Assembly: GCA_951406725.2 (NCBI GenBank)
Contig: OX597817.1
Span: 140,678,001 to 140,742,000 of the forward strand
Direction: 5' to 3'
Source of the DNA: Octopus vulgaris
Taxonomy: Eukaryota
Length of the DNA: 64,000 nucleotides
Numbering within the stretch: the first letter of the stretch is position 1; each line of letters begins with the position of its first letter. Below, piece by piece: positions 89 through 47,703 of this stretch. The notes beneath the pieces are model-generated. The model was given only the letters and a program-made list of their open reading frames with translations. It was not told where the DNA came from and did no database searches. A program made the translations under genes and the position numbers.

Positions 89-219
89 CGTATTCTATTT
101 CTTAAGATAAGAAACTAATAACATTAAGATGAAAAATCTACACACTTTCTTTTATATACATACTTTATATACATAAACATGTATTTACATATTTGTTTTG
201 ATATATATATATACACGCC

Positions 220-405
220 ATGATAGATCGTTAGCCACTACACACATTTTTTTCTCCCCTTGTTTTTTCTGTGTCCCTTTCTGTAGAAGAGCGTAGGCTC
301 GAAACGTGCGAGACTTTTTCTATTCCCGAGCGTTATACTAATACATCTGTTTGTTTTGTACACCACCTGTCTTCGTCTTTTGTTTTTTTTTTCGTAAACT
401 CTCCC

Positions 406-9308: not shown

Positions 9309-9630
<322 letters not shown>

Positions 9631-11383: not shown

Positions 11384-13388
11384 TTTTATTTTATCTAGTT
11401 TCAGCTCACGAGCTGTGGCCTTGCTGGGGCACTACCATTTGGTGTTGCTACATGATTTTACTTCACGAATGCTTTTTAGCAATTGCCATTTGGTGCATGA
11501 GAGAGTTCGATGCAGCTGCCCTCATCTGCACCTCCTGCCGTGAAGTTGGTTCATCTTGGACACCTGACAGGAAGAGATCCAGTTTTATTTTAAACACAAC
11601 TGCATCCACCCCATGCAGGTCTCTCAGGTTATTCGGGAGGATATTGAAGAGCTGTGGGCCTCTGAAGCCCAGGCTATCACAGTATCTTGTCCTACATCTT
11701 GATGGCAAATTTGGAGTCCTTGGCACTATGCAGTGGCGCCCAGTTCTAGTATTTGTGTAACTCTCGATGCCAAAGTTTGGGACAAGTCCTTCTAGGATCT
11801 TCCAGATGTATTTTATGGCATATCTTTCTCGCCTACGCTCTAAGGAATAGAGTCTTAATCTCTTGAGTCTTTCCCAGTAGCTTATATGCTGCACAGAGGC
11901 TATCTTCTTCGTGTAGCTTCGTTGGATCGCCTCAAGTTCTGTGATTAACTTGACACTGGATGGTGACCATAGCTGAGAGCAATAGTTAAAGTGGCTTAGG
12001 ACAAGTGTCCTCCAGAGGACCATCATGGTTCCTGGTCTCTTGTTCTAAATGTTCTAAGAATCCATCCGGTCAGCCGCCTACATTTCATTGCCAATTTAGC
12101 AACATGCACATGAAAGGTTGCATCATCACTCATGTAAATACCCAGGTCTCGCACTGATTGTACCTCTGGGATTGCAATCCCTCCAGGTCCACTGTATTTA
12201 TTGGGCATTGCATTTAGTTTTGCATGCTGATAGCATTAAGCTTAAAACTTTTCAGCATTAAACTACATGCTATTCTTTTCAGCCCACTTGTATATTTTGT
12301 CCAGCTCACATTGCAGGTGCATAGTGTCTTCAGGGTTCTGTATTGCCTGTCAAACTTTTGTATCATCTGCATAACTTGTGATCGTCGGAAACCATGTTAG
12401 GTGTCAGGCAGCAAGTCATTTTCTTCAAGGAAGGTGATTAGTTTCCTTCTGACTATTCGCTCCATGACCTTGCTGATGTGTGATGTCAGAGAGATAGGTC
12501 TGTAGTTCTTGGCCTCCGCTCTGCTACCTCCTTTATGAATAGGGCATATTTTACCTTCCTTCAGTTTTCTTGGAAGTTTGCCGGTTGTAAGGAAGCTCTG
12601 AAAGAGGAACTGCAGTGGTCTTGCTAGGACTCTCTTACATACTTTTAGAAGGATTGCTGGGAATCCATCGGGGCCAGTAGCTGAGTTTGTTTTCATTTCA
12701 TCTATAGCCTTTATCACATCGTCTTCCTTTATATTGATGTAATCAATCATCGCTGCCTCTGATTTTATATCTGCAGTGGTAAAGAAGTCAGTTGGATTGC
12801 TGACTTGAAAATGCCCTAGGGGTGGAGTGAAAACACTCTTGAATTGCTCATTTAGTATTTCACTTATCCTCATTGGATTTCCTGTGAGTGTGCCATCCTT
12901 TACAAGGAGTGGCTCTATCCTACAGTGCACCGTAGCTGTTTCTTTAGCATACTTGTAGAAAGCTCTGGGGTTAGATTTTATGTTGTCTATAGCCCAGGCT
13001 TCTTTGTCTGCTCTTTCTTTTTCATGGGAGGGTTGCAGACATTTTTCAATTTCCAACAGTTTTATTTTCAGGCGGGACTTTTCACTGCTTTCAATTTGTT
13101 TGTTTAGGCGATTTGAAACTTTTGTACGCCGTCTCATTAAAATTTTCTTCTCTCTGAGGATTTTGTTCTTGTGTACAGTGGCCTTTCTCTCTGGGACACA
13201 TTTGTAGCATATGGCTTGCATTACAGACATGAATTGTTGAAGTTTCATGTCGATGTCTGACGAGGAGAGACATTCAGGCCAATTTTGTTTGAGGATCTCT
13301 TTCTCAATTTGTTTCCAGTTTGCCTTATGGAAGTTCAAGCTGGAAAGATTCTGAGAATTTCTCGTAGACTGCATGTCCATGCTTTCCT
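11384..13388 (-). mobile_element. 5'-truncated CR1/L2-group LINE (RT pseudogene)
   Basis: ORF pieces 12397-13380, 12023-12208 and 11463-12026: GPDG, NYRPISLTS, HGFR, YADD, RDLG, SLERRRERY; stops, frameshifts and an internal deletion; A-rich tail. Confidence 0.9.
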
Positions 13389-13456
13389 TTATATATATAT
13401 TACAGTTATATATATATATATATATATATAACAGTTAAAATACTCCTGTCACAACT

Positions 13457-14629: not shown

Positions 14630-14822
14630 TATTAAAAAGCAGCAATGATATCACAAAAACTGTTACTCAGAGATTCACGTTCTCGTTCGTCAGAGAGAGA
14701 ACGTGAAACTCTGAGTAACAGTTTTTGTGATACTTTTCCTGCTTTTTAATAAAACATGTTACTCTACCTCTGGTATTTGAGTACCATTTTTACCACTTTG
14801 TTTTGCATTTATTGCTTACTCT
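14630..14822 (+). mobile_element. PLE-3 fragment with inverted repeat and HHR parts
   Basis: Minus arm CUGACGA-ACG-AGAA-CGU-GAAU-CUCUGAG-UA-ACAG (14660-14693); plus arm keeps GAAACUCUGAGUA; tail shared with 2788-2853. Confidence 0.75.
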
Positions 14823-14825
14823 AGT

Positions 14826-15812
14826 GGGGCCATCCGGACTCCCGTCTTCGCCGTGAACAGGGATTATTCTTTTCTCTTCGCTCTTTTGCTCCACATGGGC
14901 TCAACTCTCCTCCCCTCTTCATCTAACCCTCCTCCCCTCTCCTCTCTTCCTTTCACATCTACTTCCTCCCACTCACCTCTCCTCTCTTGCTCCGACTCCT
15001 ACTTCTCTTCACTCCTACCCTCCTTCTCTCTTCTCTTCACTCCTACCCTCCTTCTACCTTTCCCTCCCTCCATCGTCACCCCTTCCTCGTACCCCCACCC
15101 CTACACAATCAAACCCACCTTCCCTATCCATCCCATTCCACCCCACTCCATCCTTACCCCCACTCCCACATACTCCACCTCTACCTCAACCATCAGCCTA
15201 ACCCATACCCCAACTTTGCTTTCTCCACTCTCGCCTCCCCCACATCCCAACACCACCACACCACACCAAACACCACCACACCACATCACACACCACCACA
15301 CCATACCACCACGCCACTCCCCCCACACCACCACACCACACACACAACACCACACAACACACACAACACCACACCACACACCACCATGTCACACAACACA
15401 CCACCACGCACACACTAGCACTGACCACTTCCCAGCACCCACACCATCATCCACACACCTACACATGCACACACGGACACGTCAAGGTCACCAGCCCTCT
15501 TCCACATGCACATACAAGCTCTTTTATACACACACACGCGCACCTTCATTCTGGGATCACCACTACTTTATCATCTCCCCTTCTTCCTAGCACTCCTGTT
15601 TGAGCCCTCTGTCCGGCATTCGCTATGATAGATCGCTAGCTACTACACATTCTTTATTTTCTCTCCCTGTCTCTTTCTGTGTTCCTTTCTGTAGAAGTGC
15701 GTAGGCTCGAAATGTTAAAGCCCTTTTTCACTTTCCGAACGTTAAACTAATACGTCTGTTTGTTGTCTACACCACCTGTCTTCGTCATTTAGTTCTTTGT
15801 GAACTCTCCCTA
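14826..15812 (+). mobile_element. 5'-truncated Penelope-like element (PLE-1): GIY-YIG C-terminus, C-rich 3' region, HHR at 15685-15720
   Basis: 14831-14926 encodes HPDSRLRREQGLFFSLRSFAPHGLNSPPLFI*, the R..E...F.L....P.GLN end typical of PLE endonucleases; followed by the PLE-1 tail and (TA)n. Confidence 0.75.
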
Positions 15813-26327: not shown

Positions 26328-26469
26328 GGGAAAGTTTACAAAAAAAAACAAAAGACGAAGACGGGTGGTGTACAAAACAAACAGATGTATTAGTATAACG
26401 CTCAGGAATAGAAAAAGTCTTTTAGGTTTCGAGCCTACGCTCTTCTACAGAAAGGTACACAGAACAAAC

Positions 26470-26470
<1 letters not shown>
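26328..26470 (-). mobile_element. PLE-1 terminal fragment, HHR at 26419-26454
   Basis: CTTT-CTGTAGA-A-GAGC-GTAG-GCTC-GAAAC-CTA-AAAG; lies between TA tracts. Confidence 0.75.
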
Positions 26471-28154: not shown

Positions 28155-28374
28155 TGTGACCGCGTGTGTACCGTTACCGTTGGCGATTTTTTTTCCTCCG
28201 TCTTCCCTTCCTTGGGTCTTTCCTTTTCCTGTGTTTCTGACGAAGAGCTCCGCTCGAAACGTTGAACCCTCCTTCTGTCCTTCTTTTCCTGAGCGTCCAA
28301 TAATACTATATTTGTTCCACGTCCTCGCGTTGTTGTGTTTTCTCTTTGTGTTTTCATGTTTGGATTAACTTTAT
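28155..28374 (+). mobile_element. Penelope-like terminal fragment family PLE-2, HHR at 28233-28267
   Basis: GUUU-CUGACGA-A-GAGC-UCC-GCUC-GAAAC-GUU-GAAC, canonical core; homologous to 47505-47710. Confidence 0.8.
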
Positions 28375-29795: not shown

Positions 29796-30121
29796 ATAGT
29801 GTAAATGCAATGGGAATTAAGAAAGGACAGCACAGAATGGGGAAGGTTTAACGTACGAAGTTTTACCTCAATGCTATAGACCTTTACAATATGGCGTTTT
29901 CAGTACTGAAACCCATTGCTAATTAATGGAGGGTGTTAGACTTTCCGGAAACAGAATGTGTCTTAACGTTTCAGATGTTAATACTTCATCAAAAAAAGGA
30001 AAAATACAATAAATATACACATACATACACGCACACACACACATACACACACACACGCGCACACACACATACACACACATACTCAAGATGGATTTCAGCT
30101 ACGCCTGCGTATGTATGCAAA

Positions 30122-39385: not shown

Positions 39386-39531
39386 AAAATTCATATATAT
39401 ACACACTGACATAGAACCAACGTTGAACCCTTTATTCGCAATATTACCGAATCTGGAACTTAACTAAGGTCTGTCTATAGCACTTATTCAGCATTACCTG
39501 ATACCTTTGGGTCTCAATGACACCATTATCT

Positions 39532-39597
<66 letters not shown>

Positions 39598-39649
39598 CAT
39601 CTTCCAAACCATACATTCAAACCTACCAATAGCCTTACAGAGCCCCAAA

Positions 39650-40168
39650 ATGAAAAACATATTAAACAAATATAGCATAAAAAACAGTAGACGACAGGAC
39701 AAAAACCTAAAAAAACACCTAACAAGAGCGAAATTCTCTTCAGAAACTAAAACGGAATTCTTTGCAAAAGAGTGCGGAGATGGTAGATGTGGGACCTGCA
39801 GCAACCCCACCTACAAATACATAGAGAGCAACAGAGAGATAAGATTTAAAAATGGTGTCATATTCAAAGTAAATGCAGATATGAACTGCAAGACGCAGAA
39901 CGTCATATACTGCATAACCTGCCCCACATGCAAGGAGAATTACGTAGGAGAAACTGGTAATTCTTTGTGCCAGCGAGCCAGGATCCACCGACAACATATT
40001 CGGCAGGAAGAACTACGCAAAATACCACTAAGCACACACCTAGCTACATGTGGAGAAGGAAAATTTAAGATATTTCCCTTCTACAAGTGTCCGAAGAATG
40101 ACACCCCCTTCAGGAGGAATATGGAAAAACATTTCATAGCTAAGTTCTCCCCCAAATTAAATGGCTGA
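39650..40168 (+). CDS. PLE C-terminal region: Cys linker plus GIY-YIG endonuclease (remnant; RT missing)
   Basis: RQDKNL, CxxxxCxxC, NVIYCITCPTC..YVGETG, R..HR, E..FI....P.LN; open frame with no stops. Confidence 0.85.
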   Translation: MKNILNKYSIKNSRRQDKNLKKHLTRAKFSSETKTEFFAKECGDGRCGTCSNPTYKYIESNREIRFKNGVIFKVNADMNCKTQNVIYCITCPTCKENYVGETGNSLCQRARIHRQHIRQEELRKIPLSTHLATCGEGKFKIFPFYKCPKNDTPFRRNMEKHFIAKFSPKLNG

Positions 40169-45101: not shown

Positions 45102-47703
45102 CCCTCTTTTCTGCTTTCTGGTTTTGGTTGATGGATCCTCGGTTCCCGTGGAGCGGGTTGTTCGGGGGCCCCGCGCGCGCACGCCTTGGCGCGTGCTGGG
45201 GGTTGGTCGGCCCCATGGGCTTGCGTTGTATTGTTTGTGTGTTGTGTGTGTGAGCGTGCTTCGTGTGTGTGGGCGTGCTTCGGGTGTGTGCATGCGTATG
45301 TATACATACATACCCACACACACGCATGCATCCCTACCCACATACATACACGCACACCTACTCACACACACACTTACACACACACATACACACACACACA
45401 CACACACATACCCGCACACACACACATACCTACTTCAGACATACACACACACAGACAGACACCCATACACTCACACTCACACGCATACACACACACACAC
45501 ATACACACGCACACGCACACATACACACACACCTACATACATACAATACACTTGTACGTACACACACTTACATTCATACACACACACACCTACACAGCCA
45601 TACCTTCACTCATACATACACACATACCTACACACACACACAAACACTCACAGACACACACCCATACATACATACACCTATACACACACGCCTACACACA
45701 TACATACACACATACATAAACACACACATACACATACACATACATACGCACACACACATATACTTACACACATGCACACGCACATACATACATACATACA
45801 CCCATACACATACGCACACACATACTTACATACTCCTATACGCACATACATACACACAGACATACACACATACACACTCACACACATACATACACACACA
45901 CATGCATGACAAACACCCATACACTCACACTCACATACACACACACACCAACATATACACGCACACGCACACATACACGCACACACACCTACACTCCCAC
46001 ACACATACATACGCACCTACATACACACACACACGCATACACACGCATATTACATACGTACACACACACCTACATACACATGCATACACACACACACACA
46101 AACATACACGGACACACCCATACATACATACATACATACATACACCTATACACACACGCCTACACACCTACATACACACACATGCATACACACACACACA
46201 TGTACGCACATACACACACATATACGCACATACATATATACCTACACACATGCACACACACACACACATACGCACGTGCATACGCATACATGCATACGCA
46301 TACATGCATACGCATACATGCATACATGCATACACACACACACACGCACGTACACATACATACACACACACACACATACATACACCCATACACATACATG
46401 CATCCTACACACACAGACATACACACTCACACATACATACACACACACACACTCACTCACACACCTGCATGTACGCGCACACACATGCACATACACACAC
46501 TTCCACACACACACACGTACATACATACACACTCATACACATACACACACACACACACACACGGACATACATCTATATACACACATATACACACACATAC
46601 TTACATACCTTCATCGGACACACTGACACCCAGACTTACACACAGACACACTCACACATCCACACACATACATACTTACACACACACTCGCAGGCGCGCG
46701 CACAAACACGCTTGTGCACGTTCGAGCACGCATACACGCATGCATGCACCACGCTCGTGGTTGACCGACTAGATCTCCTGTACGTATCTGGGGCCGGCGC
46801 GTGTCTTTGGGTTCTCCCACGCCTGTCGCCGCGGGACCACTCTTCCATCTTCCCCTTTCCCCCCCTCTCCGCTGCAGTTTTTTCCTTAAACCCCCCTCTT
46901 TGTACACACACGCACACACATACACACACCCACTCACACACACATTTGCATATATATATACATTACACTTACACACACTTCAAATTTACTTGCCATACAC
47001 ACAACTACGCACACTAGACACACACACACTACCACTCAACACACACACTGGCACGTTACATACGCCCCCACCCTTTCCCTCCTTCCCTTCTTCCCTCCTT
47101 CCTCCCTTTTTTTACCACTGACCACTCACTCGAGACTTGCTATGTCACCCGTTCGCCCTGCACGCACTAACATATACATATTTTTTGTTTTTTTATCTCG
47201 CCTCACACACACATACACACACGCACACGCACACACTCACACATACATACACACGCACACACACATACCTCCCTGTTTCTGATCTGCCTTTCTGACTTGC
47301 TAGGGTACCCCCACACCACTCCTTTAATTCTACTACTGCCTGCTACTAGCCACTGTCCACCATACACACACATACACACACACGCACACACTCACACACA
47401 CACCCTCGTCTTCTCGCACACCTTTTTTACCATTCCCTCTTTGATTCAACTCTCCTGTTTTTAAAAAACATTTTCCTCCTTTTTTACCACTTCCGTCTTT
47501 TTAGTATGTGACCTCGTGAAGACTACCTGCAATTTTTTTCCTCTGTCCTCCCGTCTCGGGATCTTTCTTTCTCCTATGTTTCCGACGAAGAGCTCCGCTC
47601 GAAACGTCATACCCTCCTTCTTCCATTTTCCTGAGCGCCTAATAATAATAATACTGTAATTGTTCCACGTGTTGTTGTTTTTTCTGTTTTCCCGTTTGGA
47701 TTA

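Follow-up and report, generated by a model that had tools for sequence, protein, structure and literature searches.

A minimal hammerhead motif with U in place of A at core position 6 is carried in the terminal repeat (pLTR) of PLE-1, a Penelope-like retrotransposon family of Octopus vulgaris, in the oldest and the youngest subfamilies alike, and probably acts as a slowly self-cutting RNA (rough probability 0.55). The family was identified in a window of 64,000 nucleotides, that is, the whole stretch of DNA analysed (contig OX597817.1, positions 140,678,001 to 140,742,000), and its copies were compared through the genome. The masters of the family have U6, their frame for a reverse transcriptase (RT) and a GIY-YIG endonuclease lies between near-identical pLTRs, and the hammerhead block is unchanged between subfamilies save at N7 and H17. 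Position A6 is treated as near-invariant in hammerheads, and searches for these motifs usually require it. PLE-1 lacks the canonical A6 of CUGANGA and is filed here as a variant; because searches demand A6, they overlook a family that numbers at least 17,000 copies.

The features of the window are collected in Table 1. The copy at 14826..15812 comprises the end of the endonuclease gene, a low-complexity 3' UTR, the pLTR and a terminal (TA)n tract. In its motif, stem I is formed by 15685-88 and 15717-20. The core occupies 15689-95, U6 being the letter at 15692, and is followed by an extra A (15696), a stem II of 4 bp (15697-15708) capped by the loop GUAG, GAAA at 15709-12 and a palindromic helix III stub; the predicted cut falls after 15716.

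Table 1. Features of PLE-1 and of its sister family PLE-2 located in the window
Feature	Positions	Strand	Core (position of C3)	Remarks
5'-truncated PLE-1 copy, subfamily a of the present grouping	14826..15812	+		layout matches the full-length element L178
C-terminal GIY-YIG endonuclease, last 32 codons and stop	14828..14926	+		stop at 14924-14926
pLTR 3' part, common to the short window copies	15621..15812	+
Minimal type I hammerhead motif	15685..15720	+	CTGTAGA (15689)	predicted; decayed at 15698 and 15713
Short PLE-1 pLTR copy	216..405	+	CTGTAGA (281)	core 281-287 with U6; H17 and stem I decayed
Short PLE-1 pLTR copy	9440..9613	-	CTGTGGA (9547)	U6 core; low end approximate
Short PLE-1 pLTR copy	26330..26470	-	CTGTAGA (26450)	U6 core
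PLE-2 sister-family motif	28233..28267	+	CTGACGA (28237)	canonical A6; same stem II, 3-nt loop
PLE-2 motif	47578..47612	+	CCGACGA (47582)	A6 with U4C

The four PLE-1 motifs and the two PLE-2 cores listed by the first-pass annotation were all found with the letters it gave; its coordinates 277 and 15685 are the starts of stem I, and 9516 and 26419 are the low ends of the minus-strand motifs. The summary of the PLE-1 core as CUGURGA held for U6 and failed for the purine at N7, where all four letters are found across the family. The stems and GAAA had been described as largely kept, and the motifs are indeed recognisable, but all four have decayed outside positions 6 and 7. In the motif at 281, H17 is G and stem I contains two mismatches; the one at 15689 has a U-U mismatch in stem II plus C15.2U; the one at 9547 has C11.1U and G16.2A; and the one at 26450 has G16.2C. 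Each being decayed, none of them is a candidate active copy. The U4C change of the second PLE-2 motif is likely decay as well, since this copy is grouped with 22 other copies of the P2a group. An alternative register of the PLE-1 core, with a U inserted and A6 intact, was set aside, as it needs A at N7, present only in some subfamilies, and loses G8. No hammerhead family appeared among the best 150 of 420 matches in the Rfam scan of the window.

Short copies (window 216, 9613 and 15621) often start about 65 nt before C3, which suggests a preferred 5' end. Other repeats are present in the same window. A different one, arranged in head-to-head palindromes at 14634-14825 and at 2925(-)/2954(+), has CYGACGA together with a short stem and GAAAC but lacks the ending usual for type I; the PLE-1 copy 14826..15812 starts exactly at the end of the repeat 14634-14825. 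A decayed motif resembling a minimal hammerhead, with the core TTGATGA, lies at 29992(-) and is by blast unrelated to PLE-1 and PLE-2. The open frame at 39521-40165(+) contains a distant Penelope-like linker and GIY-YIG region, 26% identical to the protein P0002, and belongs to a different Penelope-like family. Finally, two frames at 11466-13434(-) resemble a broken LINE reverse transcriptase region, the family being judged by eye.

The copy at 14826..15812 had been said to begin with 31 codons ending in FAPHGLN; a coding stub is there, with 32 codons that reach SPPLFI beyond FAPHGLN. Alone, the stub (14828-14923) has no Pfam match. It is 26/29 identical to the C-terminal end of P0001, a Penelope-like RT-endonuclease frame from the genome, and 83% identical to residues 938-966 of P0002, and relatives carry it upstream through CxxC..YIGQT..EH..RH. 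The proposed tie to a GIY-YIG C-terminus was thus borne out by the identity to the frame end and by the upstream extension of the motif in relatives. The genome searched comprises 2.8 Gb in 227 contigs; in the protein search, 150 of 12,425 candidates were scored, many of them tied and with long open frames, and 20 long-ORF loci with frames of 1,009-1,211 aa were taken for study. Among them is a full-length element extending upstream of PHGLN, L178, whose recovery had been proposed as a check. It starts with the 3' part and pLTR of a preceding copy; an ORF (ATG at 2841) and its low-complexity 3' UTR come next, and then a second pLTR followed by (TA)n. The protein matches RVT_1 above cutoff (32.2 bits) and GIY-YIG below cutoff (17.4 bits, E 0.0054), the latter domain (PF01541) being identified in many homologues. 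This single ORF, in which RT precedes a C-terminal GIY-YIG endonuclease, is that of an EN+ Penelope-like element, and same-strand motifs about 4.5 kb apart bracket the ORF in 15 of the 20 long-ORF loci, as in the partial tandems of pLTRs. P0002 has a CSRPRCRTC linker and then CxxC..YIGQT..EH..RH; a CX2-5CxxC linker between RT and endonuclease together with a CCHH motif are given as the marks of Neptune/Nematis (PMC8557442), and by these motifs PLE-1 is classed as a Neptune/Nematis-type Penelope-like retrotransposon. The named protein relatives come from marine invertebrates and are 44-52% identical; the closest relatives overall reach 62%.

U6 is the prevailing state of the family. Exact matches to core plus stem II numbered 17,348 genome-wide, 16,703 of them with U6, and the reversed control gave 0. 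The remaining 645 look like later point changes; the first 100 listed, counted by eye, have C in 72, A in 19 and G in 9. As a rough comparison only, the pattern being different, minimal motifs with A6, taken over every type of stem II, gave 7,650 matches. In the 20 long-ORF loci all 36 young-type motifs read CUGUUGA, with a median pairwise pLTR difference of 0.7%. Copies picked by their coding part, ignoring the core, gave U6 in 13 of 14 motifs (14 of 30 loci having a motif in reach) and in 36 of 37 in a second set (32 of 50 loci), with A6 in none of either set. The first-pass annotation had placed the substitution in the transposing master, to be abandoned if the consensus of young copies had A6 or if the stems were unconstrained; the coding-picked and young copies place U6 in the masters, and stems and core are constrained across six subfamilies as described below. 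In four contig runs under four organism labels the stretch is present and no other letter is listed at position 6; as none is listed at the known variable N7 either, the table is too coarse to serve as evidence.

A tree was built from the pLTRs of 206 copies after masking of positions 6 and 7; in it the A6 family PLE-2 falls outside the PLE-1 ladder, and the PLE-1 groups listed are all mainly U6. The oldest of them, in the first 100 of 1,016 copies listed and counted by eye, has U in 83, A in 8, C in 8 and G in 1. Eight A in 100 is high for a transversion, yet the A6 copies are not clustered on the tree; a small A6 branch may exist within this group. Among 160 loop-variant PLE-1 copies, 91 of the first 100 listed have U6 (by eye), and no intermediate lineage ordering the U6 and loop changes was identified among the copies listed. 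No A6 revertant replaced U6 while the adjoining N7 changed at least three times.

The constraint on the motif was evaluated in 152 PLE-1 copies assigned by their flanks to six subfamilies (27, 8, 17, 45, 20 and 35 copies), unclassified copies being dropped; the grouping drew on the stem I flanks and, for three groups, on H17. Between subfamily majorities 2 of 36 motif columns vary against 71 of 146 gap-free columns outside (Fisher p 7e-7), an invariance that is partly built in, since exact patterns served to retrieve many of the copies and dictated the 5' core in the oldest group. The coding-picked copies give the same picture free of the exact-pattern bias. The two varying columns are N7, with U, C, C, G, A and U, and H17, which is either A or U and in no majority G. 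N7 and H17 are the positions left free in the hammerhead. Over 81-89 endonuclease codons, the majorities of subfamilies a, c and e differ from that of d by dS values of 0.40, 0.49 and 0.88 respectively, the last perhaps too high since the subfamily e majority has one decay-made stop; dN is about 0.05. The coding majorities of a, c and e derive from 6, 8 and 5 copies, and b and f contributed no coding sequence. If the a-d rate (20.5/65.7 sites) is taken, 34 unchanged sites still have a chance of only about 3e-6, while the stasis of U6 alone, a single site, is not significant (about 0.48 for e-d). Since only N7 and H17 change while the flanking columns vary and synonymous sites diverge this far, the fold appears to be under selection, and the pattern of constraint favours a fold still in use.

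Young copies and subfamily majorities have all the elements of a minimal type I hammerhead, namely stems I and II, GAAA, G10.1-C11.1, an extra 9a base, a palindromic helix III stub and an NUH site. Within PLE-1 loop II is fixed and the stems have no compensatory change, which indicates that the constraint is partly on sequence rather than on pairing. Between families paired changes do occur: the fourth pair of stem I is C-G in PLE-1 and G-C in the P2b group, and paired changes in stem II are present in rarer A6 families. The stretch CTTCGTCTTTT, about 65 nt past the cut site (e.g. 15780-15792), is fixed in the majorities of all six PLE-1 subfamilies. Its complementarity to the 3' strand of stem I makes a competing pairing possible, one that does not appear in the predicted monomer folds.

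Genomic traces of cutting were sought in two ways, neither of which yielded a clear one. Thirty young-type loci matched the pattern of a junction at the cut site, nearly all in microsatellites, and 5' truncations were not enriched there, with 6 of 35 listed loci starting at the cut against 5 of 35 at a control TA in loop II (by eye). Since the element has TA at the cut and the starts number 6 against 5, microhomology suffices for these junctions; uncut RNA as a template would also give non-enriched ends at this site. T-ended RNA joined to the element at the cut was also looked for; the 3 loci obtained are two mutated elements and one microsatellite insertion, and none is a small-RNA chimera. 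The best fold predicted for the young monomer is a non-catalytic rod pairing U6 with A15.1, at -10.8 kcal/mol, whereas stems I and II by themselves reach -8.4 kcal/mol; the z-score, -0.8, is unremarkable, and the fold predicted for the dimer is not the active one either. A natural A6C change is reported to keep low but detectable activity, which is better in Mn2+ (PMC3088659; PMC7151607).

The explanation preferred for these observations is that of a slow ribozyme; dimer formation, help from protein and cutting itself are the parts of it that we infer. A tandem transcript would carry two motifs, the ACGU palindromes of which could pair to form helix III, and the element's own protein would probably aid folding, by analogy with PAc, a Penelope-like element of the green anole whose hammerhead is described as cutting only with protein (PMC11167929). 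The dimeric motifs would then cut after H17 at a low rate, A6U lowering it. The lowered rate could be borne at little cost, since insertion probably relies mainly on uncut RNA as template, as reported for PAc in vitro (PMC11167929), and some cutting, or the folded shape, would still matter enough for the other core letters to be retained. Weighing against this explanation are the counts of truncations and junctions at the cut, the predicted rod and the part of the constraint that lies on sequence. An active variant and a dispensable cleavage, offered by the first-pass annotation as alternatives, are not mutually exclusive. A more tentative proposal, and a doubtful one at present, is that U6 is a naturally selected working variant of the core, down-tuned or switched on by the element's own protein and possibly with more than one origin in animals. 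On this reading the U6 lineage is the one that kept expanding, and the most common minimal hammerhead in the genome escapes searches with CUGANGA.

The main rival is a catalytically dead fold, in which A6U abolished cutting and the motif was kept as a protein-binding, dimerisation or translation signal. PAc insertion in vitro is reported as unaffected by hammerhead mutants, with no cut-site reads left (PMC11167929), and Naiad elements are described as spreading without canonical motifs (PMC8557442); in PLE-1 itself the ends at the cut site are not in excess, the fixed loop II agrees with such a signal, and no A6 revertant lineage prevailed despite large copy numbers. It is nevertheless rather unlikely, as the catalytic letters G8 and G12 are fixed and H17 is only A or U in the majorities, a pattern that a dead signal does not obviously need. 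The opposite possibility, that the GUAG loop or an element protein makes U6 about as good as A6, draws on the joint presence of U6 and the 4-nt GUAG loop in six of six subfamilies, the A6 sister groups having varied 3-nt loops, and on U at 1.7, which is also fixed. However, the known loop-loop tertiary motif requires a 3' A of loop II that pairs with U1.7 (PMC2632901) and loop II of PLE-1 ends in G, the lineage record does not order the U6 and loop changes, and where all double mutants of a type III hammerhead were scanned, single mutants of the CUGA turn are described as having low activity and no rescuing second mutation (PMC9901934), a result that also weighs against the slow ribozyme. A compensated, efficient variant is improbable.

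The constraint could also act on DNA, the block being part of a pLTR promoter or an endonuclease target and the RNA fold a relic. Promoters have been located in pLTRs (PMC6765202) and other pLTR stretches are invariant too, accounting for 75 of the 146 columns outside the motif, but a constraint of this kind predicts neither N7 and H17 as the exact free positions nor the paired stem changes between families, and it is given very little credit. The slow self-cutting RNA set out above is retained as the main reading. PLE-1 matters as a young, intact lineage that gave up A6 and yet preserved all other core letters over a span of 0.4-0.9 synonymous changes per site. The A6 sister family in the same genome makes a natural pair with it that bears on the role of hammerheads in Penelope elements, and this U6/A6 pair could tell whether cutting, slow cutting or the fold alone is what the elements require.

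A natural A6U was not found in the literature searched; Lunse et al. 2017, on hammerhead variants of Penelope-like elements, lies outside that literature and could list U6. A metagenome scan for U6 motifs, with a pattern that required TT before the core, gave 69 stretches against a rough chance estimate of about 40, and two sequence types among them have both stems. One type (6 loci) was set aside, as it lies inside a long ORF at the single locus checked. The other (L313, RCNF010026062.1, 1166-1535) is a single decayed Penelope-like end in which the core reads CUGUCGA and stem II is a different one, its endonuclease end resembling, by eye, P0012, a close protein relative of PLE-1; being one decayed copy, it does not establish a U6 family elsewhere. 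Nothing was found in viral contigs, and a search of the PDB brought no match.

Four known systems are close to PLE-1. The minimal hammerheads of metazoan Penelope-like elements (Cervera and de la Pena 2014, PMC4209133) share with it the location in both pLTRs, the short stem I and the dimer-type layout, as well as the extra nucleotide between 9 and 10.1, G10.1-C11.1 and the palindromic 15.2-16.2; they differ in that the core variant described there is U3-A8, while PLE-1 has U at position 6, and one of the two supplements of that paper contains three CUGU matches, all outside the core. The A6C hammerhead of phage Bcep176 (PMC3088659, PMC7151607) is likewise altered at position 6 in nature while the rest of its core is complete, but the letter is C, at a single phage locus, as opposed to U in about 17,000 exact retrotransposon copies, and its helix III differs from that of PLE-1. 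PAc, a Poseidon element (Frangieh et al. 2024, PMC11167929), is likewise a Penelope-like element with a C-terminal endonuclease, a pLTR hammerhead and AT-rich targets; it belongs to the Penelope/Poseidon clade and its motif overlaps the ORF start, whereas the ATG of PLE-1 lies about 750 nt past the upstream motif (2091 versus 2841 in L178). The EN+ elements of the Neptune/Nematis type (Craig et al. 2021, PMC8557442) resemble PLE-1 in the RT, the CX4CxxC linker and the CCHH-type GIY-YIG, and in partial tandems, inverted truncated copies and microsatellite targets, the difference being the core variant of PLE-1. The minimal hammerhead of Penelope-like elements is a known kind, to which are added here a full-length young element, a dS-based test of constraint and the two negative tests for traces of cutting.
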